DNA of 64,000 nucleotides from Candidatus Thalassarchaeaceae archaeon (lineage in GTDB: Archaea; Thermoplasmatota; Poseidoniia; Poseidoniales; Thalassarchaeaceae): contig JBJLBP010000001.1 of assembly GCA_045568075.1 (NCBI GenBank), forward strand, positions 102,307-166,306. The letters run 5' to 3'. Shown piece by piece: positions 7,198 to 61,841 of the stretch. Position 1 is the stretch's first letter; every line of letters starts with the position of its first letter. Made by a program: the position numbers and the translations under genes. The notes beneath the pieces were generated by a model that saw only the letters and a program-made list of their open reading frames with translations, was not told where the DNA came from and searched no databases.

Positions 7198-9231
7198 GTG
7201 AGGTTGGAAGCAACCGTTCCCTTCAAAGAAGAGACCCCTGTCGGCAGTCGCGTCGATATCATGGTAAGCGACGCATCGGGATGGTACGCACGACTTGATA
7301 GGTCGTGCGAGAATAGAATCGAACAACTCGACTCGTGGCTTGATGCCTGGGAAGAGTCGATTCGGCACAATATCCCTATCGCAGCCACAATGCCCAGCGA
7401 TTGGCCCACACTGCCTGCTGGGCTACTCTCGAATCCAGGAGCGGTTCTCGACCATATGCTGGCGCGCTACGATGCTGAAATTGATGGTCGCTCGCCTCGC
7501 GGTGCTTACGCAACTCCCGCCCGCTTCGCGGATGCAATGCTCGCCGATGAGCTCGGTGAGCGAGGTGCCGGAGTATCAACTCAGATGCCAACGGACATTT
7601 CGCTGGCCGCTCTACCTCCTGGCTTCCGCGCCTTTGCCGCTCAAATGAACGAGGCAAACTCACCCGAACTGGACGATGATTTGGACGAGGCGGTGCTGGC
7701 TGGAGAGAAGACCGCCTCTGGAATCCCACTTCCCTTTGCCGACCCAGCAGTCGGAGCCGGCCTCTTCCCCGAGCGCGTACTGAAGGTTCACTACGAGCGA
7801 ATCGATGGAATGTCGGACTCGGCTCGAAAGGAGGATACAATTCGACTCCTCTCAAACATGCAACTTCTCGATATCTCTGAGATCGCCGTGAGCTGTACTC
7901 GTCGGCGTCTCTTACTGGTTCTAGCCAAATCGGGTCTCGTCGACCTCGATGGGCCTGGTGACGATTCGCGCATCGCCCGCGAGGAAGCGGAGATTCTACT
8001 CGATTCCAGCGTCCAGCATGGTGATGCACTGCGCGGCATCTGGCCTTGGAATGATGAGCCGCGCCTACTAATTTGCAATCCTCCTTGGTTGCGCATCAAG
8101 GATAGGTTCCGAGGTCATCCTGATGGTAGCAATCTGCGTAAGGAATTGTCTCGAGAGTTGCGCAGTATCACAGAGGATGATGGTCGGCTACGATTCAGCA
8201 CCCTTCTTGGTAATGTGAACCTCTACCGCCTATTCCTCGAGCGTTCCTTACAACTCGTCAGCGAAGGAGGTCGAGTTCGTATGATTGTACCCGATTCACT
8301 GTTGCGCGAGAAGAGTAGCGTACCTCTTCGAAAGCTCATCGTCGAGCGGAACGAATGGGACTCAGCTTGGTCATTCCCTGAGAGTCAGAGGGTTTTCCCT
8401 GGGGTCTCGCAGGGTGTTCTTGTCATCGGCATCACCGTTGGGGGAGAAACTTCTGCTCTGAGGAGCTGGGGTCCTTTGGAGAGCAGCGATGTTCTACCTT
8501 CGACTGGACTCGACCCAAAATCACCGGAACTCGTCCTTGAGCGCGAAATTTGGTCGGTCTGGACCGATATGAATTGGGCTGTCCCGAGAATGCCGCGCGC
8601 TGAACATGAGCGCCGCTCGGTTCTGAAGGCGATTTCGCAACTCGCTGAACTGCCTCGCCTATCTGAGGAACATAATTGGCTCAACCCGAGTGGCGAACCA
8701 ATCCGTGTTCGTGTCGGAGAAATTGACCAAACTACGTGGTCGTCTGACATCCGTGATTGGAACCCTCGCTCTCGTGGCACACCATTCATCCGCGGAATCC
8801 ACTTCAACCTCGATGGAAGCAAGGTCTCAATCAACCACCCTGGATACAACTCCTCGATCCCAAGGGACTCACTCGAGCGGTCGCAGGCTCTGTGGAAGGG
8901 GCCTATCGAGTCGCGCGGAGTAAGTCGGATCGCTTGCCAGGCCATCGTTAACGCTCAGCAAAACCGCCGACTGCGTTGGGTCGTCGTACCCCCAGACTGT
9001 GTTCTAGGGAATTCGGTGAATTTCCTCGAGTTGCCAGAGGCTGTTCTAGACAGTCTCGCAGAGCAGTATGGAACTCTCGATGATGGTCTGCTCTGGCTTG
9101 CTGAGCACCTAAACTCAGACAAACTCAATCTCTGGTCACGTGCCTGGGCGGCGAATAATAACGTCAACAATTACGAGATCGAAAACCTACCCTTCCCACC
9201 CCCAGTCAGCCTCGCTGCTATTCAACTGTGA
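7198..9231 (+). CDS. N6-adenine-specific DNA methyltransferase, gamma class (Eco57I/TaqI-like)
   Basis: Motif X GAYATPARFADAML, motif I FADPAVGAGLF and motif IV LLICNPPWLRIKD in gamma-class order, followed by a roughly 380-aa C-terminal domain; GTG at 7198 or ATG at 7261 as start. Confidence 0.7.
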   Translation: MRLEATVPFKEETPVGSRVDIMVSDASGWYARLDRSCENRIEQLDSWLDAWEESIRHNIPIAATMPSDWPTLPAGLLSNPGAVLDHMLARYDAEIDGRSPRGAYATPARFADAMLADELGERGAGVSTQMPTDISLAALPPGFRAFAAQMNEANSPELDDDLDEAVLAGEKTASGIPLPFADPAVGAGLFPERVLKVHYERIDGMSDSARKEDTIRLLSNMQLLDISEIAVSCTRRRLLLVLAKSGLVDLDGPGDDSRIAREEAEILLDSSVQHGDALRGIWPWNDEPRLLICNPPWLRIKDRFRGHPDGSNLRKELSRELRSITEDDGRLRFSTLLGNVNLYRLFLERSLQLVSEGGRVRMIVPDSLLREKSSVPLRKLIVERNEWDSAWSFPESQRVFPGVSQGVLVIGITVGGETSALRSWGPLESSDVLPSTGLDPKSPELVLEREIWSVWTDMNWAVPRMPRAEHERRSVLKAISQLAELPRLSEEHNWLNPSGEPIRVRVGEIDQTTWSSDIRDWNPRSRGTPFIRGIHFNLDGSKVSINHPGYNSSIPRDSLERSQALWKGPIESRGVSRIACQAIVNAQQNRRLRWVVVPPDCVLGNSVNFLELPEAVLDSLAEQYGTLDDGLLWLAEHLNSDKLNLWSRAWAANNNVNNYEIENLPFPPPVSLAAIQL

Positions 9232-12938: not shown

Positions 12939-12985
12939 CTGCCTTGATGGCTATCGCAACACACCCCATTAGATTGGAGCACAAG

Positions 12986-13023
12986 CCGGGATTTGCACCC
13001 GGGTCCACGGATCTGCAATCCGT
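12986..13023 (+). terminator. two adjacent GC-rich hairpins downstream of the dehydratase gene
   Basis: CCGGG-ATTTGCA-CCCGG followed by ACGGAT-CTGCA-ATCCGT, read directly from the sequence; function as terminator is inference. Confidence 0.25.
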
Positions 13024-13189
13024 TGCATAGCTACTCTGCCACTCGTGCGACAGACGCCCGACCCCCGACCCCCTCTTGAAGAATCTTCTCAGTGATGATG
13101 AGTGTCAGCGCCGAACCTCCACTTGTGAATGGAAGGAAGAGGGAGATTTCCGGTAGTATGTTCAAAGAGTAGATTCTCTAGGGCGTATT

Positions 13190-14041
13190 GTGGAAAAAGA
13201 GTGGTGGAAAAAGGACGACCCTCAGTGGCATGAGGAAAATCAGCAGGACCCACCATCCGAAGCCGACCTAGCGGAGCAACAACGCATCGTACAGGAGCGT
13301 TATCGTAAAGAACACTCAACAGGCAATGAAGAAGACAATGAAACAAACAACATGTTTCCAAAATCTATTGTTATTGTTGGTGTTGTTGTATTGGTAATAG
13401 GCGTCATGCTCATCGGTTTTGCAGCTGCATCTGTAGGTGATCTGGGGTCTGATGAAGAATGGATATCCGTAGACTCAAAGATTGATGCAAAATACCCAGG
13501 ATACAACGAGATTCGGGTTGAAGATTGCTACACTGACGATTGGGGTGATGAATACTGCGAATATTGGTACGAATTGGAGTGCTGGGTTGATTTGGACGTA
13601 TCCTACATAGTGGAAAATACCACTTATCATGCTCAGTTCGACCAATATCATATCGAAAATTACGAAGACTACGATGGAGCCGAGGAGGATTGCTTAGAAT
13701 ATGGCCAGAATGGAACTATGATGGTGGGCACCAACTTTGAGATTTTTTACAACTCCAACGACCCAAGCGATGCACGCCTTGAACCTCCCATGAGCGGTGC
13801 TGCGATTTTGTTGATGTTTTGTGGAATTGGAGTTCTTTTTGGAATTCTAGCTTTGGTCGGCTTCCTTCGTGGGGATTGGGGAACGAGTGCTTCTAGTAGG
13901 GCAAGTACTGGAATTACGTTCAACATTGGTGGCCGTGGTTCTTTCATGGGAAGAGGAAGAAGACATCGGAAGGTAAGTCGTAAGTCACGAAGAGGTTCTA
14001 GAGGTCGGTCTGGTGGCGGCAGATCTGGCGGCGGTCGTTGA
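13190..14041 (+). CDS. hypothetical two-TM membrane protein (DUF3592-like topology) with RG/RS-rich tail
   Basis: GTG start (or ATG at 13352); TM1 SIVIVGVVVLVIGVMLIGF, Cys/Trp/Tyr-rich domain ending in FEIFYNSNDPSDARLE (resembles the DUF3592 motif), TM2 AAILLMFCGIGVLFGILALVGF, then RGRRHRKVSRKSRRGSRGRSGGGRSGGGR; local GC about 35-45%. Confidence 0.55.
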   Translation: MEKEWWKKDDPQWHEENQQDPPSEADLAEQQRIVQERYRKEHSTGNEEDNETNNMFPKSIVIVGVVVLVIGVMLIGFAAASVGDLGSDEEWISVDSKIDAKYPGYNEIRVEDCYTDDWGDEYCEYWYELECWVDLDVSYIVENTTYHAQFDQYHIENYEDYDGAEEDCLEYGQNGTMMVGTNFEIFYNSNDPSDARLEPPMSGAAILLMFCGIGVLFGILALVGFLRGDWGTSASSRASTGITFNIGGRGSFMGRGRRHRKVSRKSRRGSRGRSGGGRSGGGR

Positions 14042-14089
14042 TTTCCCAGCCCTGAAATAACCGCATTTCAAATGAGGTGAGCCTTCCGT

Positions 14090-14974
14090 GTGCTCATGAT
14101 GGAGCGCTTACAAGTTCAGTCTCGCTCCCCATTTGAGATTCATCACATACTGACTGGTTTGGAAAAAACACCTCAAACTACAATTGAGGCTGAACTATTC
14201 CTTCCGGAAGGCGATGGACCGTTTGGGTGTGTAATTGCCCATCATGGAAGCAAAGGTTGGGCAACTCATCATCAAGACCACATCGATGGTTGGATCAATG
14301 CTGGGCTGGCGGTTTGTAAGGTAAATTCATTCGCCGCAAGAGGGATTGATTCAACGGTTGACGACCAACTTTCGGTAACTCATGCAATGATGCTTGTTGA
14401 TACCTTTAGCACGCGTTCTGTATTGGCTCAAGACCCTAGGATCAACAAGATTGGAATCGCAGGTTGGAGCCTCGGTGGAACTGTTGCTCTGTACTCGGCA
14501 TGGTCTCCTATTATCGAGATTCTAGGGTCTGCATTCGATGCTCATTTGCCATTCTATCCAGCAGCTCATATTCGACCCGATATCCAAAATTGGTCGGACT
14601 CACCAATTTTGATTCTTCATGGAGATGCTGACAATTGGACTCCTGTGCATCTGGTTGAAGAACTACTTCCTCAACTTCCGAATGCTACCTTACATACATA
14701 TCCTGATGCACACCATTCTTTCGACAGTGAAAAAGAACTGACACTTCTTCCAAAGGCGGTTCGCTTAAGGAAGCGAACTGCTAGAATAGACAAGAATGGA
14801 TACATGTCTGGAGAATTATTACTTGGTATTCGATTGCCTCTGAACGAGCGCTGGCAGCGTAGATGGATTATCCGACTTTTGCGAAACAGAGGGGCCCATG
14901 TGGAAGGCAACCCCTCTGCTCGTGCTGATTCTCTAGATAGGGCTAGAGATTTCTTCGTAGAGCAACTTTCCTAG
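14090..14974 (+). CDS. alpha/beta hydrolase, dienelactone hydrolase-like
   Basis: Nucleophile elbow GWSLGG, LILHGDADNWTP and C-terminal HH as in DLH-family hydrolases. Confidence 0.6.
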   Translation: MLMMERLQVQSRSPFEIHHILTGLEKTPQTTIEAELFLPEGDGPFGCVIAHHGSKGWATHHQDHIDGWINAGLAVCKVNSFAARGIDSTVDDQLSVTHAMMLVDTFSTRSVLAQDPRINKIGIAGWSLGGTVALYSAWSPIIEILGSAFDAHLPFYPAAHIRPDIQNWSDSPILILHGDADNWTPVHLVEELLPQLPNATLHTYPDAHHSFDSEKELTLLPKAVRLRKRTARIDKNGYMSGELLLGIRLPLNERWQRRWIIRLLRNRGAHVEGNPSARADSLDRARDFFVEQLS

Positions 14975-14985
14975 GATAATTGGAC

Positions 14986-15011
14986 TGCAAATTAACTGGT
15001 GTAAATTTGCA
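14986..15011 (+). terminator. inverted repeat TGCAAATT-N10-AATTTGCA between hydrolase and aminotransferase genes
   Basis: 8-bp perfect arms read from sequence, 12 nt after the stop at 14974; terminator role is inference. Confidence 0.25.
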
Positions 15012-15044
15012 TATCTTGAAGACCGGCCTGCACTCAGTCGATGC

Positions 15045-17722: not shown

Positions 17723-18964
17723 TCAAAACAGATTCGCGTAAGTGCTACACTTCTCGCTTATTCTGAGTAGTTGATTGTACTTCGCTGTCCTGTCTGATCT
17801 TGCTGGAGCTCCTGTTTTAATTTGTCCAGCATCAGTTCCAACAGCAATGTCTGAGATGATTGAGTCTGCGGTTTCTCCTGAGCGATGGCTGATGATTGTG
17901 CCAAGGCCGGCAGCCTTTGCCATCGCGATTACCTCGAGCGTCTCTGATACCGTTCCAATCTGATTGAGTTTGATGAGAATCGCATTCGAAGCGCCCATCG
18001 CAATACCTTGAGCGAACCGCTCGGGATTAGTCACATACAGATCGTCACCAACGACCTGAACCCTGTGTCCTTCACGCTGGGTGAATTCTACCCAAGAGTC
18101 CCAATCGTCCTCACCGAATGGGTCTTCGATCGAGACGATTGGATAATCATCGAGCCAAGCAGAGTATAGTCGTCCCAATTCGGAGCCACTCATCACCCCG
18201 CCATCGATGTGGTAACCATCCTCATGGAGGAATTCTTGGCTCGCCACATCCAAAGCAATCGAGACCTGTTCGCCAGGAAGATAGCCAGCTCCTGAAATCG
18301 CATCTACAACAAAGCGCAGGCCCTCCTCATTTCGAGGTAGGTTAGGTGCAAAGCCTCCTTCGTCGCCAACTCCACCAAGTAATCCAGCATCTTTGAGCAC
18401 GGCGCGCAGTGAGTGATAGATTTCCACGCCAGCACGCAGAGCCTCTGGGTAAGAATCGAAGCCGTGTGGTACAACCATGAATTCCTGCACATCAACATTC
18501 GAATTTGCGTGAGCCCCGCCATTGAGGATATTCATCAACGGCACAGGTAGACTGGCCGAGCCATCGGAGAGGTGTTGCCAAATCTCGCCATCGCCGACTG
18601 TTGCCCTTAGACAAGCCATAGAGGCCCCGAGCATTGCATTAGCGCCGATGTCGCCCTTGTTTGGTGTAGAGTCGAGAGCTAGCATTGCGGCGTCGACTGC
18701 GCCTTGATCGCTAGCATCCATTCCGACTAGAGCATCAGCGATTCGCCCGTTGACATTTGCAACTGCTCCGTCGACGCCTTTGCCGGCCCAGCGGTCGCCA
18801 CCATCGCGCAATTCGACAGCTTCGTGACGGCCAGTGCTAGCTCCAGAAGGAACCATTGCTCGGCCTAGTGTTCCGTCTTCGGTAACGCAGTCAACCTCGA
18901 CTGTTGGGTTACCACGAGAGTCGAGGACCATTCTTCCGTGGACGCGCGAGATGCGGGTGCCCAT
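17723..18964 (-). CDS. eno: enolase (phosphopyruvate hydratase)
   Basis: MGTRISRVHGRMVLDSRGNPTVEVD, SGETADSIISDIAVG and IKTGAPARSDRTAKYNQLLRI are canonical enolase motifs. Confidence 0.95.
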   Translation of the reverse strand: MGTRISRVHGRMVLDSRGNPTVEVDCVTEDGTLGRAMVPSGASTGRHEAVELRDGGDRWAGKGVDGAVANVNGRIADALVGMDASDQGAVDAAMLALDSTPNKGDIGANAMLGASMACLRATVGDGEIWQHLSDGSASLPVPLMNILNGGAHANSNVDVQEFMVVPHGFDSYPEALRAGVEIYHSLRAVLKDAGLLGGVGDEGGFAPNLPRNEEGLRFVVDAISGAGYLPGEQVSIALDVASQEFLHEDGYHIDGGVMSGSELGRLYSAWLDDYPIVSIEDPFGEDDWDSWVEFTQREGHRVQVVGDDLYVTNPERFAQGIAMGASNAILIKLNQIGTVSETLEVIAMAKAAGLGTIISHRSGETADSIISDIAVGTDAGQIKTGAPARSDRTAKYNQLLRISEKCSTYANLF

Positions 18965-19053
18965 TGAACCGCCGACCGGCGGGTGCTTTCTCAAGATACC
19001 GCAATAATTTCACTACATAACTTGTCAAAGAAACCAGTTTAATCCAAAAATAA

Positions 19054-19068
19054 TTTGTATATTACAAA
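19054..19068 (+). promoter_or_regulatory. perfect palindrome TTTGTATATTACAAA upstream of the HTH gene
   Basis: Read directly; lies about 40 nt upstream of the GTG/ATG of the 85-aa HTH ORF in an AT-rich stretch; short palindromes of this size are expected several times by chance in 64 kb. Confidence 0.25.
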
Positions 19069-19098
19069 ACATTATAGTAAGATACCTATTCCGCTAGG

Positions 19099-19356
19099 GT
19101 GAGCAACATGGCACTGGAAGCACCCCAACTTGCAAAATTGCTGAAGCTAAGAGCGGTTGGATGGTCTCAACAAGAGATTGCGGATGCGATTGGAACTTCG
19201 CAACAAGTCGTCGCTTACCAGCTGAAGAAATTGAAGGAAGAATCTCTGAAGAAAGATCCGGAAGAGGTGTTCAGTACTGCCATAATGGGCGGGATTGCAA
19301 TCGGTGCTGGATTAGGTGCTGCTGCAATGATGTTTGCTCAACTATTGAAGAAGTGA
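19099..19356 (+). CDS. small membrane-anchored helix-turn-helix protein
   Basis: HTH-like segment GWSQQEIADAIGTSQQVVAYQLKKL (sigma-70 region 4 / LuxR-like) followed by one hydrophobic helix AIMGGIAIGAGLGAAAMMFAQLL; GTG 19099 or ATG 19108. Confidence 0.5.
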   Translation: MSNMALEAPQLAKLLKLRAVGWSQQEIADAIGTSQQVVAYQLKKLKEESLKKDPEEVFSTAIMGGIAIGAGLGAAAMMFAQLLKK

Positions 19357-19357
19357 T
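19343..19357 (+). repeat. 15-nt direct repeat TATTGAAGAAGTGAT, copy 1 (3' end of HTH gene)
   Basis: Identical 15-mer recurs at 19695-19709; both copies end a reading frame with ...QLLKK-stop. Confidence 0.5.
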
Positions 19358-19372
19358 ATTTGGAGGAATAAA

Positions 19373-19684
19373 ATGACGAACACGTATGAAGAAATGAATC
19401 GAAGAATAGAGAATGGAGAGTTTGGCACACCGCCGGACCCGAATCTATTGCACCAAGCATGGGCCAACGAGCATGAGAGAGATATTGCGAATAGAGGGAG
19501 TAAGTCTGTTTACCATGGGGTTTGCTCTCTTTGGGAAGACAAAGGAAAGGTCCTGCTATCTGGGAGGACGCAGGAAGAAACCATAGTCCCGGCTGGTGTC
19601 AAAGTTCTGGTTTTAAGGAAGGATCCTGAGCCTGGAACGCGGCAACCTAACGCTAGTATTGTTTACGTTACTTACGAAGACTGA
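19373..19684 (+). CDS. hypothetical protein
   Basis: 103-aa ORF with ATG start and GGAGG-like sequence upstream; no known motif. Confidence 0.45.
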   Translation: MTNTYEEMNRRIENGEFGTPPDPNLLHQAWANEHERDIANRGSKSVYHGVCSLWEDKGKVLLSGRTQEETIVPAGVKVLVLRKDPEPGTRQPNASIVYVTYED

Positions 19685-19694
19685 GTTATTCAGT

Positions 19695-19709
19695 TATTGA
19701 AGAAGTGAT
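19695..19709 (+). repeat. 15-nt direct repeat TATTGAAGAAGTGAT, copy 2
   Basis: Located 10 nt after the TGA of the 103-aa ORF and in frame with it (YED-stop-VIQLLKK-stop). Confidence 0.5.
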
Positions 19710-19712
19710 TTT

Positions 19713-19793
19713 GTGGTCGATATCTACGTCCTGGAATGTGAGGGCGGTAAATTCTACGTCGGAGGAGATGATTCACTCGTTCAGCCAGGATAG
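19713..19793 (+). pseudogene. possible remnant of a GIY-YIG nuclease N-terminus
   Basis: 26 codons VVDIYVLECEGGKFYVGGDDSLVQPG then stop; IY-x9-YVG spacing fits the GIY-YIG signature but the frame closes immediately and no continuation exists in other frames. Confidence 0.15.
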
Positions 19794-20243
19794 CCAACGA
19801 GCAACCACATTCTGAACACCTGGAACTTCCATCTCAGATCTGCAACATCTCTCCCAAGCTAATTGTTCGCCCTTCGGAGTAATCGAGAATAATTCAGCCC
19901 GTAACAAAACTCCATCCGGAGAGTCGCATTTACTTCGATTATCGTCAATAAAACAATGTATCAAATTCTTGGGGAAATGGTGCATCTTACCTGACTCTGG
20001 GCAGCACAACATTACACTGCGCTCGAGGAAAAGTAGCGATGATCCTGAGGACTCGTCAACCTCGTGTCCTATGATGCGAGTATCCGAGAGCATGTTGGCA
20101 ACATCGACATTGTACCATTGGGTTTGATCGGGTGAGATGTTGAGTCTTGACACGTCATCAAGATATTGCTGAACCTTCAGTTGGGTGTATCCCTCATCCA
20201 CGCCCATCGAACACTTACAAAACGGCGACCCATTTGAATGCAA
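19773..20243 (-). CDS. hypothetical Cys/His-rich protein
   Basis: 156-aa ORF and the only long frame in this AT-rich stretch; no recognised motif; could be non-coding. Confidence 0.3.
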   Translation of the reverse strand: MHSNGSPFCKCSMGVDEGYTQLKVQQYLDDVSRLNISPDQTQWYNVDVANMLSDTRIIGHEVDESSGSSLLFLERSVMLCCPESGKMHHFPKNLIHCFIDDNRSKCDSPDGVLLRAELFSITPKGEQLAWERCCRSEMEVPGVQNVVARWLSWLNE

Positions 20244-20350
20244 CTTTACATTTTAATTATGAAATTATCCGAATTCCGGAAAAAAATCATAGTTCATTTT
20301 GTGACAATAAGCACCTAACATACAAATAGGGTTCCCAAATCGGAAGGCCC

Positions 20351-20773
20351 ATGCTTGCCGTAGACTCACTTGACAGATCGATTCTCGCCGTCCTTCGCGA
20401 GTCCGCTAGAGCGCCTTTCGTAGAGATCGCGAAGAAGGTCGGAGTTACTGAAAGAACCGTCCGTACACGCATGAAGCGCATGGAAGAAGATGGAGTTGTG
20501 CGCGGGTACACAATCCGCGAAGCTGGCATCGGTTTGACTGCTCTTGTTCGCATTAAGGTGGGTCCAGGAACTGAAATCGGTACCCTCGCTGGCGAGTTCG
20601 CTGGATGGGAAGGCGTCGAGTGCGTCTACGAGATTTCTGGCGACGCTGATTTGATTGGAATTGTTCACATCGATGATACGGTCGCACTTCGCGATTTGCT
20701 CGATCGAATGTGGCTCACCGCACCCGGCGACATCACATCGACTCAGACCGAATTAGTCCTCGAACAGTACTGA
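20351..20773 (+). CDS. Lrp/AsnC family transcriptional regulator
   Basis: N-terminal HTH DRSILAVLRESARAPFVEIAKKVGVTERTVRTRMKRMEEDGVV plus C-terminal RAM-type domain. Confidence 0.85.
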   Translation: MLAVDSLDRSILAVLRESARAPFVEIAKKVGVTERTVRTRMKRMEEDGVVRGYTIREAGIGLTALVRIKVGPGTEIGTLAGEFAGWEGVECVYEISGDADLIGIVHIDDTVALRDLLDRMWLTAPGDITSTQTELVLEQY

Positions 20774-29292: not shown

Positions 29293-30546
29293 TTGTTGGA
29301 CGCTAATGAGTTCATCAGAGAAGTCGAGGACTTCGATGAATTTGGCACTGAAACCGTGTTCGAAGATTACGAGTGGGAAGTAAATGAACGCTCAGGAGTA
29401 ACTCGCAAGGCCATTAACGAGTTCTGGACGAGCGCTCAAAGACAAGGCAATAGTCTGCATGAGATATCTTACCGAGCCTGTTTCAAACCACAACTCCCTG
29501 GCTTCTTCATCTCAAGACTCACGGAGGTTGGTGAGGGCGTTTACGACCCATTCATGGGAAGAGGAACTACGCTGCTCGAGGCGTTCTTGCAGGGAAGAAA
29601 GCCACTTGGCAACGACATAAATCCACTCAGTGCTGCACTACTTGAGCCAAGGATTAATCCACCCACATACGAAGATGTGGAGGCTCGGCTGAATCAAATC
29701 GATCTGGGGGTAGCAGAGGAGAGTTACCCCGAATTAGAGGTGTTTTTCCACCCTGATACGCTTAGACAAATTATTGCCCTGAAAGAATACTTTCTCAGAA
29801 GGGAATCGTCAGGTGAAATCGATAATGTCGACAAATGGATTCGCATGGTTGCAATAAACAGACTGACCGGTCATTCGCCTGGTTTCTTCTCTGTATATTC
29901 ACTACCTCCAAATCAAGCGGTGTCGATAAAGAGCCAAAGAAAAATCAACGAAAAGAGAGAGCAAACTCCTGAATCTAAAGAGATTAAACCGAGGATTCTC
30001 AAGCGAACGAAAGCATTGCTAAAAGATTGGAATGGGGCCCCACTGAATCACACTGGCCTCGATCTTTCACCATCATTGACAGTCGAGGATGCGGCCGGCG
30101 CTATGAGTATCCCGAGCTCGTCTGCAGGTCTGGTTGTGACCTCCCCGCCTTTCCTAGACGTTGTCGACTACCAAGGAGACAACTGGATGCGATGTTGGTT
30201 CTTGGGAATCGATGCTTCGACTGTTGAGATTACTGAGTTGAAGAAGCCTGAGGATTGGAAAGCAAAGATGACTGAAGTCATGCGTGATCTGAGTAGAATC
30301 CTGAAGCCCAGTGGTTACCTCGCCTTCGAGGTTGGAGAAGTCACTTACAAGAGAGAAAAGTTGCTTCTTGAAGAATTAGTTCTTGAGGCGGGAGTAGAGG
30401 CTGGATTAGAGCCAGTAATCATCATGATTAACGATCAGGAATTCACCAAGACTTCGAATGCGTGGGGCGTTGACAATCTATCGAAAGGAACCAATACCAA
30501 TCGTATTGTCATCTTTGAGAATGTTACAAATCATTTACCAAACTGA
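29293..30546 (+). CDS. DNA methyltransferase of the N4-cytosine/N6-adenine (pfam01555-like) type, permuted motif order; predicted N4-cytosine
   Basis: Motif I region PQLPGFFISRLTEVGEGVYDPFMGRGTTLLEAFLQGRKPLGNDINP near the N-terminus; motif IV LVVTSPPFLDVVDYQGDNW and RILKPSGYL near the C-terminus; SPPF (Ser) is more typical of m4C than m6A enzymes; local GC about 35-47%. Confidence 0.65.
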   Translation: MLDANEFIREVEDFDEFGTETVFEDYEWEVNERSGVTRKAINEFWTSAQRQGNSLHEISYRACFKPQLPGFFISRLTEVGEGVYDPFMGRGTTLLEAFLQGRKPLGNDINPLSAALLEPRINPPTYEDVEARLNQIDLGVAEESYPELEVFFHPDTLRQIIALKEYFLRRESSGEIDNVDKWIRMVAINRLTGHSPGFFSVYSLPPNQAVSIKSQRKINEKREQTPESKEIKPRILKRTKALLKDWNGAPLNHTGLDLSPSLTVEDAAGAMSIPSSSAGLVVTSPPFLDVVDYQGDNWMRCWFLGIDASTVEITELKKPEDWKAKMTEVMRDLSRILKPSGYLAFEVGEVTYKREKLLLEELVLEAGVEAGLEPVIIMINDQEFTKTSNAWGVDNLSKGTNTNRIVIFENVTNHLPN

Positions 30547-30997
30547 GGAATTTAGTTCTCGGAATCTTGCTGTTTTTGCCCAGATCACCGCTATGCCACC
30601 ATTGTTTCACTGTCTCATATCGAATGATCCAGTACGGCATTTCTGGGAAGCGTGTGATGTCGGTGACAAAGTATCCCTCAACATCATCGAGTTTGTCTAG
30701 GAATCCCAATTCATCGAACTTGCGCCCGGAACCTACCATGTATGAAGGACAAAAGTAGATGCCCCCCTTAGTGAGGCTTCTAACTTCCCAATTTCCGCCA
30801 TCTGCATCAATCAGGTCGAAGCCCGAGCCTTCGCTTGGGGCCAATTCTGAGCCGGGCATTGATTCGACTGCTCGGCGCTCAATTAGGAAGGAAACTCTAC
30901 GCCCATCAGTGAAGTACTTTCGAGTATCTTCTAGAGAAATATGCAACGACTCGGAAATTGCTTCCAGATCAAAAGTTAGCCAGCCGCTGGGTTGCAT
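30524..30997 (-). CDS. hypothetical 157-aa protein, candidate restriction endonuclease partner
   Basis: Convergent with and overlapping the methyltransferase 3' end by 23 nt; ATG at 30997; possible PD-(D/E)xK-like segment GFDLIDADGGNWEVRSLTK; assignment is inference. Confidence 0.4.
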   Translation of the reverse strand: MQPSGWLTFDLEAISESLHISLEDTRKYFTDGRRVSFLIERRAVESMPGSELAPSEGSGFDLIDADGGNWEVRSLTKGGIYFCPSYMVGSGRKFDELGFLDKLDDVEGYFVTDITRFPEMPYWIIRYETVKQWWHSGDLGKNSKIPRTKFLSLVNDL

Positions 30998-54526: not shown

Positions 54527-56041
54527 GTGGATACCGAAATAGTTCATCGCCGTCGCTGGATGATTCTCGGTGTCATGAGTCTTAGTCTTGTTATTGTGAT
54601 GCTCAATAATGTGACACTGAACGTCGCTCTTCCTGAACTCTCAAAGGATCTTCGAGCAGATAATACCGAGTTGCAGTGGATTCTAGATGCCTATGCATTA
54701 GTCTTCGGCGGATTGCTTCTTGTTATGGGTGCCCTTGGCGATCGATTCGGTCGCAAAGGCGCCCTGCAAATTGGGCTCTTGTTAGTTGCAACCGCTTCTG
54801 CCCTGACCGCGATGTATGCATCGACATCGGGCGAGGTAATTGTTGCCCGCGCGGTAATGGGAATTGGAGCAGCCCTCGTGATGCCGGCAACGCTCTCTGT
54901 GGTGGTGGTTGTATTCCCTCCTGAAGAAAGGGGCAAAGCGGTTGGAATATGGGCCGCTATGGCCGGAGTCGGCGCTCCACTTGGTCTACTTGTAGGAGGG
55001 TGGGCTGTGGAGAATTACGATTGGCAAATGGTCTTCTGGATTAATGTTCCAATTATCGCTTTAGCACTACTTCTCGGGCTATTTCTCGTGCCCAAATCTA
55101 AGGATAATCAAGAGCGCCCTCTCGATCCTATTGGGGCCTTCCTTTCCATAGGCGCATTGGGTTCAATTCTCTACGCCATAATCGAGGCCCCGAGTCATGG
55201 ATGGACGTCGCCAGAAACGATTGGAGTGGCGGGCCTCGGCTTGCTGTTTACTCTAGCATTCATCCAATGGGAGAGGCGTGTTGAGCATCCAATGCTGCCA
55301 ATCGAATTCTTCTCCTCACCTGGCTTTACCATGGGATTGATTGCAATCATGTTAGCATTCTTCGTTATGTTTTCTTTCATGTTCACGCAAATGCTTCATT
55401 TCCAATTGGTACGAGGACACACAGCCCTAGATGCGGCTTTGAGATTCCTTCCTCTACCGCTGGGGTTGATGCCTGCGGCAGCTAACTCAGATCGTCTGGT
55501 TGCGCGATTCGGAAGTAATCGAATTGTCAGTACTGGTCTAACTTTGGTCGCCATTGGAATGGTCCTCTTCACCACTGTAACTATTGATACGGAATATCTT
55601 CAAATCGCTGTCACCTTCTTCCTTCTAGGGCTTGGTATGGGACTAACTATGGCGCCTTCTACTACTCTTGTAATGGATTCAATCCCTGAAGACAAGGCAG
55701 GGGTAGGGAGTGCCACAAACGATGCAAGTAGAGAAATCGGCGGCGCGCTTGGAATTGCGATTGGCGGTTCTGTGCTCAACGAATATTACCAACGTAGCCT
55801 AGTGGTTCCTGAGGAACTAGAACATCTTGATTCCGTTCTTCGTGAATCATTCCCCGCAGCGATGAGGATTGGAGGGGATATGCTGTCAGAAGGTAATGAG
55901 GTAGGCGCCCAGTTAATTGAATCCGCAAGACTTGCATTTGTAGACGGAATGATTGCATCCGCTTGGGTAGGGGCGGTAATTGCCCTTACCAATGCGTTGC
56001 TAGTCTGGAAATTTATGCCTTCGCGTGCAATCTATGATTAA
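54527..56041 (+). CDS. MFS transporter, DHA2 (drug:H+ antiporter, 14-TM) family
   Basis: About 14 predicted TM helices, motif GALGDRFGRKG after TM2. Confidence 0.85.
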   Translation: MDTEIVHRRRWMILGVMSLSLVIVMLNNVTLNVALPELSKDLRADNTELQWILDAYALVFGGLLLVMGALGDRFGRKGALQIGLLLVATASALTAMYASTSGEVIVARAVMGIGAALVMPATLSVVVVVFPPEERGKAVGIWAAMAGVGAPLGLLVGGWAVENYDWQMVFWINVPIIALALLLGLFLVPKSKDNQERPLDPIGAFLSIGALGSILYAIIEAPSHGWTSPETIGVAGLGLLFTLAFIQWERRVEHPMLPIEFFSSPGFTMGLIAIMLAFFVMFSFMFTQMLHFQLVRGHTALDAALRFLPLPLGLMPAAANSDRLVARFGSNRIVSTGLTLVAIGMVLFTTVTIDTEYLQIAVTFFLLGLGMGLTMAPSTTLVMDSIPEDKAGVGSATNDASREIGGALGIAIGGSVLNEYYQRSLVVPEELEHLDSVLRESFPAAMRIGGDMLSEGNEVGAQLIESARLAFVDGMIASAWVGAVIALTNALLVWKFMPSRAIYD

Positions 56042-56047
56042 GAAAAT

Positions 56048-56482
56048 TCACTCTCGGTTGAGGACCATATGGAGTAAGAGTCCAACCGGCATCAGCATGA
56101 CCCCGAAGAAGACAATCCCTCGTGTTTGATTAATTCCGATTTCATTCTCAATCGCCTTGCGCCACATCCACCTAGTGGCAATTATGTCGCCTGCGACCAT
56201 ATGGGTCCATGCAAGAACCGTTCCCGACTCCGTTCCCAGAAGATTGACCATAGTATCCATCATGTCAGCAGGATTTCCAGAAAATAATTCTATCATGCCG
56301 CTTGGATCAACAATTATTGTGGCAAAATATGCAACTAAGGGTCCGATGAAAAGAGTATTTCCTTCCACCCATTTCGAAGTTCTTTCAGATGTGGGTTCAA
56401 TCATCATAAGCAACCAAAAAGGCCCAACCCAAATAGTTGGAATCAGAAACAGTACCGCATAAATCAATTCCATATCAATCAC
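56048..56482 (-). CDS. DUF4281 / ABA4-like membrane protein
   Basis: 4 TM helices and AWTHMVAGDIIATRWMW segment resembling the ABA4-like family. Confidence 0.5.
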   Translation of the reverse strand: MIDMELIYAVLFLIPTIWVGPFWLLMMIEPTSERTSKWVEGNTLFIGPLVAYFATIIVDPSGMIELFSGNPADMMDTMVNLLGTESGTVLAWTHMVAGDIIATRWMWRKAIENEIGINQTRGIVFFGVMLMPVGLLLHMVLNRE

Positions 56483-57074
56483 TCAACGCTGCTGCAACTT
56501 CTCCGGCTTCTTCCAATTGTTCAATTGAAAACCAGTAAGAGGAGGCCTGCCATACGATATCCCCGTTTTTGTCAAGCAAAATTACAGAGGGAGTTGGTAA
56601 ATTCCCAAAAGCTTCTACAACTGAAAGTTCCGAAGGCTCTCTAGTATCGAAATCAAGCGCTAGGCGCGAATGCCCATCAATAACCACCGGCCATGGCGAA
56701 TAGTGATCGCTTGAGTTGTTTCCATAAACTTGCATTATGTTTTCTGATGATTCGAAGTTACCGTATCTGTGAATTGTAATTGGTTGAATCGTGCTATAGT
56801 TGAGATTACTTTCTCGGATTCCTTCTGCCCATTCGTGGCAACCTTGACATTGCGAACTAACCCAGAACAAAAGTACCGGATTTTCTCCTAATTCGGTAGT
56901 CAGGTCTAACATCGGACCTCCATCAACATCTCTTCCCAGTGTTGGGAGTGTGAAGGTGTATCTTTTGTCTTCAATTTCCTCTTCTCCAAGCTCTTCTTGG
57001 ATTTCTTCAGCCAAACATCCTGCTGTAGCAGATAGTAGGAATAATGCAGTCAAAAGCCCAATTATTTTCTTCAT
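56475..57074 (-). CDS. thioredoxin-fold lipoprotein (TlpA/redoxin-like)
   Basis: Signal peptide MKKIIGLLTALFLLSATAGC (lipobox); SSQCQGCHEW CxxC motif; probable ATG at 57074 inside ORF 56475-57146. Confidence 0.6.
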   Translation of the reverse strand: MKKIIGLLTALFLLSATAGCLAEEIQEELGEEEIEDKRYTFTLPTLGRDVDGGPMLDLTTELGENPVLLFWVSSQCQGCHEWAEGIRESNLNYSTIQPITIHRYGNFESSENIMQVYGNNSSDHYSPWPVVIDGHSRLALDFDTREPSELSVVEAFGNLPTPSVILLDKNGDIVWQASSYWFSIEQLEEAGEVAAALSD

Positions 57075-57088
57075 TTTTCTCTCTCCAA

Positions 57089-57820
57089 TTATGGCTTGAT
57101 AGTACCTAATCCGCCATTGACTCCGATGATTTGCCCCGTCATCCATTCAGGGGCACCATTTACCAACCAACTAGCAACATCAGCAATTTCCTTTGCTTCA
57201 CCAATTCTTCCGACCGGATGCATCAAGTCACTAATTTTCCGACTTGCATCATTCTTCAGAAGGTGTTCCGACATCGGTGTATCAGTCATTGCAGGGGCGA
57301 TCGCATTGACCCTAATCCCCCGCTTTGCATAGTCTGCAGCAGAGGCGCGAGTCAATCCTTCAACAGCCGCTTTTGCTGCGGCAATAGCGGCGTGATTAGT
57401 CATACCATGAGTGGCCGCTACGGAAGAAAACAGAACAATCCTACCTCCTTCACCCCTCATCATCGGAACCGCGGCCGATCGAATCGCATTGAAAGCAGTG
57501 GTGAAGTTTTGGTCAATCGTATCTTGTACCTGTTCTGTGGATGTTGCATGTAGAGGTCTCAGAAGGATTGAGCCAACAGCGACGACGACGGCATCAAGGC
57601 GTCCATGACGTTGGAGGATTTCTCCAACCGCTTCCTTCATTGCATCTGCATCTCTGGCATCCACTGGTAGTATTTCGAGGCCACTAATTTCGTTACTAAG
57701 TGATTCTAGCGTTTCTTCAGTTCTACCACTCGCTACAATATTCCAGCCTTCTTCGGAGAGATTCTGACAAACATTACTCCCCACTCCTCCGGCGGCCCCC
57801 AATACCCATACAACAGACAA
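57089..57820 (-). CDS. short-chain dehydrogenase/reductase (SDR)
   Basis: N-terminal VLGAAGGVGS cofactor motif and classical SDR length. Confidence 0.8.
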   Translation of the reverse strand: MSVVWVLGAAGGVGSNVCQNLSEEGWNIVASGRTEETLESLSNEISGLEILPVDARDADAMKEAVGEILQRHGRLDAVVVAVGSILLRPLHATSTEQVQDTIDQNFTTAFNAIRSAAVPMMRGEGGRIVLFSSVAATHGMTNHAAIAAAKAAVEGLTRASAADYAKRGIRVNAIAPAMTDTPMSEHLLKNDASRKISDLMHPVGRIGEAKEIADVASWLVNGAPEWMTGQIIGVNGGLGTIKP

Positions 57821-57839
57821 TTCATGACCTCCTTAGGAT

Positions 57840-59432
57840 CTATCTCATTGCCTTAGGTCTACGGAGATCAGGGAACCAAGTATCTACACCATTCCAATCA
57901 ACAGGAATCCCTAGATCGGAAATTACCAGCTTACTGCTAATCCTAGCACTCTCAAAGATTGTTGGAAGACCACTTCCTGGATGAGTCCCCCCTCCAACTA
58001 AGTAGAGACCATTCAATTCCTCGAAGCGATTGTGGGGGCGCCTCCAAAGCATTTGGTCTAGTCCGTGGGCTAAATTGAAAACTGCTCCTCGATATATGTC
58101 GGAAGCACCCCAATCATCAGGAGTAACGATTGTCTTACTAACCATGTGATCTCGAAGATTTGTGTATCCTAAATGCGCCATCTGATCGATGATTAACTCA
58201 GAAAACTCTTCCTTTTCATTCTCCCAGACAATACTTGGATCTGTGTTGGGAACTGGAACTAGAACATACAGTGTGGATTGTCCCTTTGGAGCCATGCTTG
58301 GGTCGGTGATGCAAGCGTTCTGTACGTAAATAGAGGGATCATTCCAAGGAATTTTGTGATTGTCGATATTCACCAAACTATTCTCATAATCTGCAGAGGC
58401 ATAGATTTGATGATGGGGTTCATCGTATAGTTTGTCAACTCCAAGATAAAGCATGAAAGTCGAGCAAGAATACGATTTCTTCTGCAACTTTTCATCGGAC
58501 CACTTCTTTCTCTTCTGGTTTGGAATCATGGTAGTCATGGCATGACCAAAGTCTGCATTCATGATGATCTTTTCAGCCATATAATCCACATTCTTTGTTC
58601 GCAAACCTTTGACAGTCTTGCCTTCGATGATGACTTCATCGACCTCGGTCTCTAATTCGAACAGAACTCCCATCTCTCTGGCAATTTCCCCCATCCTAGC
58701 AGTAATTGAGCCGAGGCCACCTTTAGCATGGAAAATCCCGTGCTCGTACTCCAAGAATGCTAGAATAGTGAATAACGATGGTGCATGAAAAGGACTCATT
58801 CCGAGATATTTAGTTTGGAAAGACATTGCCAATCTAACTCGCTCATCGTCGAATAATCGTTCGAGATCAGATGCAACGCTGGCCCAGGGTCTCAGCACGG
58901 TAGCTGCGGAAAAGGCACGCTTGGAAAGAAGGTCGGATGGCCCCCTCCAAGGTGTTTGCAGACAACCCCTTGAACGGGCCAACTTTCTTCGATTCTCAGT
59001 GATGTAACGCTTGAATCCCTCGGCGTCTTTGTCGCCAGATAATTCCCTTACCCTTTCTGTCATCGCCTCTAAATTACAGGTGGCATCAATGGAGCCACCC
59101 CTTCCAAAGACAAGCCGATATGAGGGGTCTAGAGGTATCAGGCCAAGCTCCTCATGAGCGTCTCTTCCAATCGCTTGGAAAATTTCCTCTATAACTTCTG
59201 GATAATGGAAAAAGGTAGGGCCCCTATCGAACTTGAATCCATCATGTTCGACGATTCTTGTCCTCCCTCCTATGAAAGGGGTCTTTTCGATTACTCGGAC
59301 CTTCAAACCACTGTGGGCTAGGAGAAGGGCGGAAGCCAGGCCACCGGGTCCTGCTCCAACAATCAAAATGTCTTGCTCTTTGTTAATCGAGTTCTCAGAC
59401 TCAAGAGAAAGGGAGGGGGATTGCATGCTCAT
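57840..59432 (-). CDS. crtI: phytoene desaturase family (CrtI-like carotenoid desaturase)
   Basis: N-terminal FAD motif ILIVGAGPGGLASALLLAHSGLKVRVIEK...IGGR and C-terminal LYLVGGGTHPGSGLP. Confidence 0.8.
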   Translation of the reverse strand: MSMQSPSLSLESENSINKEQDILIVGAGPGGLASALLLAHSGLKVRVIEKTPFIGGRTRIVEHDGFKFDRGPTFFHYPEVIEEIFQAIGRDAHEELGLIPLDPSYRLVFGRGGSIDATCNLEAMTERVRELSGDKDAEGFKRYITENRRKLARSRGCLQTPWRGPSDLLSKRAFSAATVLRPWASVASDLERLFDDERVRLAMSFQTKYLGMSPFHAPSLFTILAFLEYEHGIFHAKGGLGSITARMGEIAREMGVLFELETEVDEVIIEGKTVKGLRTKNVDYMAEKIIMNADFGHAMTTMIPNQKRKKWSDEKLQKKSYSCSTFMLYLGVDKLYDEPHHQIYASADYENSLVNIDNHKIPWNDPSIYVQNACITDPSMAPKGQSTLYVLVPVPNTDPSIVWENEKEEFSELIIDQMAHLGYTNLRDHMVSKTIVTPDDWGASDIYRGAVFNLAHGLDQMLWRRPHNRFEELNGLYLVGGGTHPGSGLPTIFESARISSKLVISDLGIPVDWNGVDTWFPDLRRPKAMR

Positions 59433-60445: not shown

Positions 60446-60514
60446 GCATCGACATCGACCATGCTCCGTATATAATGAAATGTTTTCAAAAATTATTCTT
60501 AATTCAATAAATAA

Positions 60515-61759: not shown

Positions 61760-61841
61760 ATCGAGTGAGTAATCCTTTCACAATATCAAGTGCTGTTTCA
61801 GATTTGTAACAAATCAGTATTAGAATCGAAAATTCAATGAA

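Follow-up and report, generated by a model that had tools for sequence, protein, structure and literature searches.

The DNA considered here, referred to below as the window, is a stretch of 64,000 nucleotides (nt) from a Candidatus Thalassarchaeaceae archaeon (assembly GCA_045568075.1, contig JBJLBP010000001.1, positions 102,307 to 166,306 of the forward strand); positions are counted from its first letter. Between a dehydratase (PALP) gene and a class I/II aminotransferase gene lie two open reading frames (ORFs) with a GC content of about 46%, embedded between genes of 57-60% GC. The first encodes a two-pass membrane protein of 283 amino acids (aa), termed TwoTM, and the second a serine hydrolase of the dienelactone hydrolase (DLH) family. 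An earlier inspection of the letters alone, called the sequence-only reading in the following, had taken this region for one AT-rich islet, bracketed by GC-rich hairpins on one side and an inverted repeat on the other. The low GC content is real, although moderate, and the stretch consists of two separately acquired promoter-plus-gene units that lie side by side, not of one island. The features of the locus are listed below; contigs and genome loci used for comparison carry L numbers and proteins P numbers.

12975-13048, minus strand: tRNA-Cys(GCA) gene with encoded CCA (ARAGORN; Rfam RF00005, 56.1 bits)
13034-14054, plus strand: mobile cassette, comprising a tRNA fragment, promoter, TwoTM gene and 13 nt of 3' sequence (blastn against unrelated loci)
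13034-13048, no strand assigned: 5'-terminal 15 nt of the tRNA-Cys gene, inside the 16-mer CTCTGCCACTCGTGCG at 13034-13049; left end of the cassette (alignment, blastn)
13049-13189, no strand assigned: spacer between tRNA and TwoTM, part of the mobile cassette (alignment)
13190-14041, plus strand: TwoTM gene, 283 aa, GTG start (ORF call, homologue alignment)
13190-13357, plus strand: acidic N-terminus with E-K-E-W-W motif, probably cytoplasmic
13358-13435, plus strand: first transmembrane helix (TM1, residues 57-82)
13436-13789, plus strand: DUF3592-like beta domain with 4 Cys and NTT/NGT sequons, probably extracellular
13790-13867, plus strand: second transmembrane helix (TM2, residues 201-226)
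13868-14038, plus strand: basic RG-rich tail (residues 227-283)
14055-14985, plus strand: hydrolase insert, consisting of its own upstream sequence and coding sequence, absent from the slot in relatives
14064-14074, no strand assigned: palindrome CATTTCAAATG, about 22-32 nt upstream of the hydrolase start codon
14096-14974, plus strand: coding sequence of the DLH-family serine hydrolase, 292 aa (Pfam PF01738)
14986-15011, no strand assigned: inverted repeat TGCAAATTAAC/GTAAATTTGCA, 11-nt arms, 91% complementary, 4-nt loop

The two hairpins proposed as the left bracket (12986-13023) are the interior of the tRNA-Cys gene, which is recognised by ARAGORN and Rfam alike; an Rfam scan of the window returned two tRNAs and nothing further. 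This tRNA gene is kept at the same place in L002, L008, L009, L048 and L052, and L015 shows its sequence as well. It and the TwoTM gene are transcribed away from each other, and the spacer between them presumably holds both promoters. The inverted repeat proposed as the right bracket does exist, 34-59 nt upstream of the aminotransferase start. In L009, L015 and L016, which carry no DLH gene at this place, the same palindrome comes directly after the TwoTM stop codon, within a 90-nt block that is 86% identical between the window and these relatives. Since it is present in relatives without the hydrolase, the inverted repeat belongs to the upstream region of the aminotransferase gene, for which it is probably a promoter or operator, and does not mark a boundary of the islet.

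The gene order throughout the genus is PALP, a variable segment, tRNA-Cys, TwoTM and aminotransferase, and it is identical in same-species contigs from eight assemblies. A strain that seemed to lack the gene (L008) was discarded as an exception, the apparent gap being a scaffold gap of 100 Ns. The hydrolase occupies the slot only in the window species and its closest relatives (L013, L014, L046-L049), with the insertion lying after the TwoTM stop region (...TGATTTCCCAGCCCTG) and before the aminotransferase palindrome; L009, L015, L016 and L052 lack it at this place. The two genes of the stretch have separate histories, TwoTM being present in the slot genus-wide and the hydrolase only in the closest species. 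In some relatives, additional small ORFs are found between the PALP gene and the 3' end of the tRNA-Cys gene (L009 7325-7705; L015 about 1000-1120) that have no counterpart in the window, the one in L009 encoding a membrane protein of 126 aa with a weak DUF4134 match. The tRNA-Cys locus is therefore variable on both sides.

In numbers, the islet (13049-14985) has a GC content of 0.466, compared with 0.597 for the PALP gene, 0.569 for the aminotransferase gene and 0.520 for the whole window, and its lowest 60-nt segment, at 13325, reaches 0.283, in agreement with the value of about 33% that had been given for sampled lines. At third codon positions, GC amounts to 0.419 in the TwoTM gene and 0.376 in the hydrolase gene; relative to the mean of 58 window ORFs (0.520, standard deviation (sd) 0.075), these values lie about 1.3 and 1.9 sd below, respectively. 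Contigs related to the window all stem from Marine Group II (MGII) archaea, Candidatus Poseidoniales, and from Thalassarchaeaceae/Thalassarchaeum (MGIIb-O1) where a lower rank is named.

The architecture of the 283-aa protein described by the sequence-only reading, with an acidic N-terminus, two transmembrane helices around a domain rich in Cys and aromatic residues, and an RG-rich tail, is borne out. The GTG start is supported by the EKEWW motif that follows it, which aligns with M-T-E-R-W-W at the ATG starts of distant homologues. The net charge is -9 for the N-terminus, -28 for the ectodomain and +15 for the tail; the ectodomain contains 4 Cys and 20 aromatic residues and ends, just before TM2, in the YNPxDP-like FEIFYNSNDPSDARLEPP. 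An orientation with both termini inside and the Cys-rich domain outside is suggested by this charge partition and the positive-inside rule, as well as by Cys pairs, sequons and the lack of a signal peptide, and the ectodomain would then be disulfide-bonded and N-glycosylated. In the AlphaFold model, the ectodomain (about 90-200) is beta-rich with a predicted confidence score (pLDDT) of 75-88, and both termini are disordered. The tail (227-283) comprises 14 Arg, 16 Gly and 10 Ser residues at a pLDDT below 50. A frame artefact in this tail had been named as an outcome that would refute the sequence-only reading; the GGRSGGG(G)R C-terminus is nearly invariant among homologues of 35-98% identity and is written in codons that differ by lineage, and this conservation through different codons down to 35% identity identifies the tail as a selected feature of the protein. 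At the DNA level, the region coding for RGG did not come up as a tandem repeat in Tandem Repeats Finder (TRF). In composition, repeat pattern and predicted disorder, the tail is like the RGG/GAR tails of eukaryotic and some bacterial RNA-binding proteins; it differs from them in belonging to an archaeal integral membrane protein, and acidic protein segments or lipid head groups are equally conceivable as its partner. It probably binds polyanions (nucleic acid, ribosomes or the acidic N-terminus of the same protein) on the cytoplasmic side of the membrane.

A first search returned 30 homologues of TwoTM, and when 1.84 billion cluster representatives were scanned in full with an HMMER profile, only 52 family proteins emerged. 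The family is very small and specific to one lineage, Marine Group II/Poseidoniales: every one of the 26 species-representative genomes that carry it belongs to the Poseidoniales, the taxonomic family, where given, being Thalassarchaeaceae. Its members share a conserved order of elements, namely a (D/E)xWW motif with an acidic helix, a retropepsin domain in most lineages, TM1, the ectodomain, TM2, a basic segment that is rich in His, Arg and Tyr in most lineages, and a C-terminal (R-S-G-G-G-(G))n repeat of 2 to more than 5 copies. The ectodomain consists of one or two copies of a Cys/Trp/Tyr-rich domain in which the four Cys and the NTT and NGT sequons are invariant. The retropepsin-like DTGA domain of the relatives (P0017, P0019, L012; DTGA at residue 104 in P0019) scores 61.1 bits against TIGR02281, above the cutoff, and E 1e-14 against PF13975. 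Most family members thus share with the clan AA proteases (TIGR02281/PF13975/PF13650) a domain that would lie on the cytoplasmic side, and it is missing from the whole genus of the window: the window TwoTM has neither a retropepsin domain nor a DTGA motif. This genus has lost the domain, and the window protein is a derivative of a family whose members are mostly DTGA aspartic proteases tethered to the membrane and sharing its ectodomain and tail; lacking both domain and motif, it cannot itself act as a protease. Retropepsins are active as homodimers, and the domain in the relatives would by analogy imply dimerisation. Apparent "long variants" of 541-566 aa among the genome loci were rejected, as they result from masked runs of N translated as X.

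The assignment of the ectodomain to DUF3592, which had been proposed from the letters alone, holds at the superfamily level. The scores against PF12158 lie below the gathering threshold of 25.3 bits (19.5 bits, E 0.0016, for the window TwoTM; 23.9 bits, E 6.9e-5, for P0019/L012). Further agreement comes from the family profile, whose weakest matches are bacterial proteins with a DUF3592 domain between two transmembrane helices (P0177, P0190, P0193, P0195 and P0200; E 1e-8 to 7e-4), and from a Foldseek comparison with viral structures (BFVD), which found giant-virus proteins annotated as DUF3592 at E 1e-6 to 1e-4 (for annotated DUF3592 matches, values of 5e-5 to 3e-4 at a probability of 1.0 are also given). 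The DUF3592 proteins of bacteria and giant viruses have the same succession of a transmembrane helix, a small beta-rich exposed domain and a second helix, and the same (F/Y)YNxxDPxxxxL end of the domain. The MGII domain differs from them in its four invariant Cys, its highly aromatic and acidic composition and its N-glycosylation sequons, and none of the ordinary DUF3592 proteins examined showed the WW motif with acidic helix, the retropepsin domain, the His/Arg-rich segment or the RGG repeats. We know of no function for DUF3592.

Comparison of the TwoTM gene with its neighbours reveals a discordance at synonymous sites. Within the genus, protein identity of TwoTM to L015 and L009 is 76% and 61%, with 76-90% for the neighbours; identity at fourfold-degenerate sites is 0.76 (L015) and 0.74 (L009) for TwoTM and 0.27-0.39 for the neighbours. 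Outside the genus, the retropepsin-type gene lies in one fixed neighbourhood in 22 species representatives and 57 metagenome loci (POR, AKR, NUDIX/metallo-beta-lactamase, TwoTM, p286, NFACT, GNAT, TDO). There, in most MGIIb comparisons with L012, fourfold-site identity is 0.46-0.86 for TwoTM and about 0.3, a saturated level, for all neighbours. Between L012 and L021, nucleotide identity is 0.46-0.68 in both neighbours and 0.74-0.97 inside TwoTM, and the similar tract ends at the gene borders. The pattern also breaks up within the gene, in opposite ways for different pairs of lineages. For L012 and L033, 3/25 fourfold sites match in the retropepsin block and 30/43 in the ectodomain (Fisher p 3.7e-6); for L012 and L023, 38/49 match in the N-terminus and retropepsin domain and 13/57 in the ectodomain and tail (Fisher p 2.2e-8). 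The retropepsin block of L033 is even more diverged (0.42-0.55) than the flanks (0.66-0.81). Since some blocks are too similar and others too different, recombination among divergent allele classes is indicated, and not a uniform constraint on synonymous sites. In the window gene itself, the core coding for the ectodomain (13430-13790) is 84-98% identical to L015/L009, with flanking genes at about 74%, and the N-terminal and TM2 parts are about 50-79% identical. The alignments show an exchange of TwoTM alleles and of blocks within the gene between species and genera.

The ratio of nonsynonymous to synonymous substitution rates (dN/dS) of TwoTM is 0.32 within the species and 0.44-0.75 between lineages, most neighbours having 0.1 or less, and these ratios indicate that selection on the gene is relaxed. 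In the acidic N-terminus, 16 replacement changes and 1 silent change separate the window from L055. As a separate observation, in the comparison of L012 with L034, the high-identity tract (about 7500-9800 in L012 coordinates) extends past TwoTM on both sides, to the 3' end of the gene before it and the 5' part of the p286 gene. Such an extended tract in closer MGIIb relatives is what ordinary homologous recombination would give, distant pairs showing tracts bounded by the gene.

In addition to allele exchange at a constant place, window-type copies of TwoTM occur at other places. A metagenome scan found copies that lack all of the known neighbours; they fall into at least three other contexts. 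In the first, L055, the flanking genes have 42-46% GC and encode an EF-hand protein, a 300-aa protein of unknown type, a Tag glycosylase, a PKD-domain protein and a beta-helix protein; the glycosylase is 100% identical to a protein from an archaeal metagenome-assembled genome (MAG), and its close homologues are named Poseidoniales or marine group II. The TwoTM of L055 has 83% protein identity and 0.89 fourfold-site identity to that of the window, and the shared DNA begins at CTCTGCCACTCGTGCG and ends 6 nt after the stop codon. In the second context, L051, the cassette lies next to genes for a Zn-ribbon protein and a ResIII helicase. In the third (L113/L114/L054), a Peptidase_M28 gene and an MFS transporter gene precede TwoTM and the left junction is a different one, at window position 13096. 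By blastn, the shared segment extends over 13034-14054 in L050/L051 (89% identity), 13034-14047 in L055/L115 and 13096-14053 in L113/L114/L054 (87%); over the three groups, identity to the window is 87-89%. L055 and L051 share a cassette segment of 1,058 bp at 98.3%. Although L113 and L051 are closely related (93-95% identity of the genes they share), the cassette differs between them in position and orientation. Junctions differ from site to site, and neither terminal inverted repeats nor a target duplication, attC site or integrase were found with the cassette in the window and the flanks examined.

The left end of the cassette carries a trace of its origin. ARAGORN found no tRNA gene in L050, L051 or L055, and the 5'-terminal fragment of tRNA-Cys travels with the cassette as a scar, which points to a donor with the locus of the window type. 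In L055 and L051, the spacer resembles that of the window more than that of L015 or L009; it is 77-91% identical between the window and these two contigs and more diverged in L009. It includes a (GACCCCC)x3 repeat (13053-13073, TRF) of variable copy number, with one copy fewer in L055. An integron gene cassette was considered and rejected, because the unit brings along its upstream region and only 6-13 nt follow the stop codon, leaving no room for attC. Two further sequences were noted around the relocated copies. About 40 nt (GGCATCA..GGGTAGCGTCTAGTTCGGCCCACTGAAAGC), absent from the window, are joined to the tRNA-Cys fragment in L055 (3354-3392) and L051 (1415-1455), which suggests that the cassette passed through an intermediate site or moved a second time. 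A 93-bp sequence with GGTGGGGCCCCC is 86% identical between L055 (1-91) and L051 (270-361), 1-3 kb upstream of the cassette, and is the sole similarity of these contigs besides the cassette. It could be a small repeat or an RNA; Rfam gave no match on L051, L054 and L055, this sequence included.

The second unit of the stretch encodes a hydrolase whose family had been recognised correctly from the letters alone (Pfam PF01738, 42.6 bits with a cutoff of 21, E 6.6e-11). Its start was placed at ATG 14096 and not at GTG 14090, judged from homologues. The motifs GWSLGG, HGDADNW and AHHSF can be read from the sequence in the expected order, and a basic extension of about 75 aa forms the C-terminus. 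The nucleophile of classical dienelactone hydrolases is Cys, in contrast to the Ser in the GWSLGG elbow of the window protein, and NCBIfam holds no equivalog for it. Among its 513 homologues, the 120 listed are at least 79% identical and include proteins named from both MGII families. Homologues of 79-85% identity lie in four different neighbourhoods in the four other lineages examined. In three of these four contexts (L039, L042 and L043), about 40 nt of upstream sequence including CATTTCAAATG accompany the gene and homology stops at the stop codon; in L045, homology begins at the ATG. This makes CATTTCAAATG a likely promoter or operator element of the hydrolase's own. Fourfold-site identity to the copies in other contexts is 0.44-0.57 and unsaturated, and the GC content of the gene (0.46) resembles that of lower-GC MGII genomes, that of the window being 0.52. 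Judged from these comparisons, the hydrolase behaves as a self-contained gene that relocates or is transferred among MGII genomes.

A conserved pair of TwoTM and hydrolase is not claimed. In other MGIIb lineages, TwoTM is followed by p286 (286 aa; L012 9436-10296 and equivalents in L017-L038), and a BLASTP comparison of p286 with the window DLH gave no significant similarity (E 0.24). For p286 there was no Pfam match, and its matches in the Protein Data Bank, with an alpha/beta-hydrolase-like look, were marginal (E 0.087). If an alpha/beta-hydrolase follows TwoTM in both settings, this may be coincidence or functional convergence.

The wider surroundings contain several other regions of low GC or variable content. 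The genes flanking the stretch are those for GCV_H, RNase H, PALP, the class I/II aminotransferase, AdoMet decarboxylase, deoxyhypusine synthase and enolase. Another patch of low GC (0.44) lies at 19000-20300 of the window, between the enolase gene (17723-18994) and that of an AsnC-type regulator (20351-20773). Its gene content varies among strains of the same species (some have 82 aa plus 195 aa, others 154 aa or 76 aa), as seen in comparison with L001 12064-13344, L002 11920-12820 and L009 12931-16834, and the equivalent in L009 encodes a HATPase_c protein and an Mrr_cat/DEAD helicase of defence-like look; the patch appears to be a hot spot for variable genes. At 7198-9231, a protein of 677 aa with an Eco57I-type domain (PF07669), found at the same place in related species, is a candidate type IIG restriction-modification enzyme. 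Other low-GC stretches (0.43-0.47) at 29293-30997 and 56000-64000 hold the genes for an N6/N4 DNA methylase, then those for an AhpC-like protein, phytoene desaturase, phytoene synthase, an ABC1 kinase and an MMPL transporter.

The explanation considered best, with a probability of roughly 0.72 as a whole, is that two independent single-gene units lie between the tRNA-Cys gene and the aminotransferase promoter region and that the TwoTM gene has been exchanged and relocated. Unit 1 (about 13034-14054) would be a promoter-plus-gene cassette for a lineage-specific two-pass membrane protein; the comparisons show that its alleles have been exchanged and that the cassette has been copied to at least three unrelated loci. 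Unit 2 (about 14055-14985) would be a self-contained promoter-plus-gene unit for a cytoplasmic DLH-family serine hydrolase common throughout MGII, inserted beside TwoTM only in the species cluster of the window. Illegitimate or short-homology recombination is the likely route, because no recombinase, terminal repeat or att duplication was found with the cassette. The idea of DNA foreign in composition is upheld in substance by evidence beyond the letters alone (synonymous discordance, mosaicism and multiple contexts), but not the picture of a single bracketed islet. Conserved synteny across relatives had been named by the sequence-only reading as an observation that would speak against its view; synteny is conserved within the genus, yet the gene has demonstrably been exchanged, so gene order is not decisive here.

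Several points weigh against this explanation. The GC dip is modest on its own, and several other genes of the window are equally low and ordinary (DNA methylase, MOSC-domain protein, carotenoid-synthesis genes, MMPL transporter). The dN/dS of TwoTM stays below 1 overall (0.3-0.75) and exceeds 1 only in the N-terminus, where counts are small. The ectodomain is the most conserved part of TwoTM within the genus, a misfit with simple diversifying selection on a surface; a conserved, recently shared ectodomain fits the spread of a favoured variant better. All sequences are metagenome assemblies or MAGs, from which copy number and transfer direction, the latter by means of the tRNA fragment, can be deduced only indirectly. 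No vector or recombination mechanism was identified for the exchange, and gene-bounded replacement between genomes with flanks only about 55% identical is left without an explanation.

TwoTM may be a surface-exposed protein under biotic selection, for example by viruses or cell-cell contact. A narrower proposal would make it a single-gene antiviral defence or superinfection-exclusion protein instead of a passive surface or scaffold protein, with the RGG tail engaging incoming nucleic acid and, in long family members, the retropepsin domain as effector. Defence genes typically have a narrow lineage range and low GC, are under relaxed or positive selection and show frequent transfer and mosaicism, and TwoTM behaves likewise; its insertion into variable regions beside a ResIII helicase and the Eco57I-like gene nearby in the window genome would also suit such a role. 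Set against these are the lack of any match at E <= 0.01 in PADLOC-DB v2 for TwoTM, the DLH protein, P0019 or p286, the position of the retropepsin-type copy in a fixed locus among housekeeping genes without a direct tie to viruses, and the absence from the window protein of the sole domain of recognisable catalytic function. A defence function is accordingly regarded as unlikely, although it retains an appreciable chance.

Descent of the stretch from a virus or integrative element that inserted at tRNA-Cys, carrying TwoTM and DLH as its cargo, is decidedly improbable. A tRNA gene does adjoin the stretch, the tRNA-Cys fragment travels as att sites do, and GC is low; moreover, the other insertion sites lie in variable regions, by a ResIII helicase or surface proteins, and two-pass DUF3592 proteins are common in giant viruses. 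An att duplication was nevertheless rejected, since CTCTGCCACTCGTGCG occurs only once in the window even with 3 mismatches allowed, and no flanking direct repeats were found there. No integrase, transposase or other mobile-element gene was present in the flanks examined, the junctions vary by site, unlike those of site-specific integration, and the two genes arrived separately. Homologues in archaeal viruses, which the sequence-only reading had suggested looking for, did not come to light: IMG/VR (2.9 million viral contigs) contained no confirmed TwoTM relative and PHROGs no match to TwoTM and no meaningful match overall, in addition to the negative PADLOC result.

There is very little to recommend purely vertical descent of both genes, with low GC and synonymous similarity resulting from amino-acid composition, codon preference or constraint on synonymous sites. 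It would account for the conserved synteny of TwoTM within the genus, for its GC being below that of its neighbours in 16/20 lineages, seemingly a property of the gene, and for the strictly conserved neighbourhood of the retropepsin-type copy. Codon bias was rejected as the cause of the high fourfold-site identity, as the codon usage of each gene itself predicts 0.26 and values of 0.46-0.89 were observed. The excess also ranges from 0.30 to 0.72 at similar divergence of the flanks, the block patterns are opposite depending on the pair of lineages, with some blocks more diverged than the flanks, and the cassette with its tRNA scar occurs in at least four unrelated contexts. Finally, the notion that these contexts are metagenome assembly chimeras across sequence shared by co-occurring populations is scarcely tenable: all alternative contexts do come from short-read metagenome contigs and a 1-kb segment of 87-98% identity can mislead assemblers, but each context is reproduced in independent samples and projects (L055 (LWDU01) and L115 (JGI 3300035226); L113 and L114 (two JGI samples) and L054 (Tara); L050 and L051), chimeras would still require the cassette in genomes with flanks other than the tRNA-Cys/aminotransferase locus, and the evidence from synonymous sites and mosaicism is independent of contig joins.

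The exchange and relocation of TwoTM can be placed beside known mosaic genes for surface proteins, examples of which are flagellin and pilin genes. A further one, porB of Neisseria, is exchanged between species by recombination (PMC10327514). Such genes and TwoTM have in common gene-bounded similar tracts, discordant blocks and a purifying selection weaker than that on their neighbours. TwoTM differs from porB-type genes in that its exchange spans genera, with flanks of about 55-60% DNA identity, and takes place in uncultivated archaea, and in that one sub-lineage relocates as a promoter-bearing cassette to non-homologous sites; in addition, its exposed domain is the conserved and not the variable part. 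Its evolution thus has analogues in mosaic bacterial surface genes, from which exchange across genera combined with recombinase-less relocation in archaea sets it apart. In the literature on DUF3592, archaeal retropepsin-like proteins and gene flow or genomic islands in MGII, nothing was found on the TwoTM family or on such exchange, nor was the combination of a DUF3592 ectodomain, retropepsin domain and RGG tail found described. In its architecture, TwoTM is a novel form of a known domain whose function is not known.

In the surface ocean, Marine Group II is one of the most abundant groups of archaea. To our knowledge, none has been cultured, and we are aware of little on their gene exchange or interactions with viruses. 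For this group, the locus documents gene flow between species and between genera concretely at the level of sequence, and the TwoTM gene offers a tractable marker for recombination and transfer in populations. For annotation, the lesson is that two separate acquisitions can lie behind a modest fall in GC and that alleles may continue to be replaced under conserved synteny. The family, with its DUF3592 ectodomain, optional retropepsin domain and RGG tail, can be flagged as a candidate in surface or virus interactions. As a speculative proposal, more likely wrong than right by a wide measure, it may represent a hitherto unrecognised archaeal transmembrane module in which a glycosylated ectodomain reports an outside event, such as contact with a virus or cell, to a retropepsin domain activated by dimerisation and/or a nucleic-acid-binding RGG tail in the cytoplasm and which spreads as a recombinase-free cassette. 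If this were true, TwoTM would be a new kind of mobile host-virus (or self/non-self) determinant in abundant archaea of the ocean.

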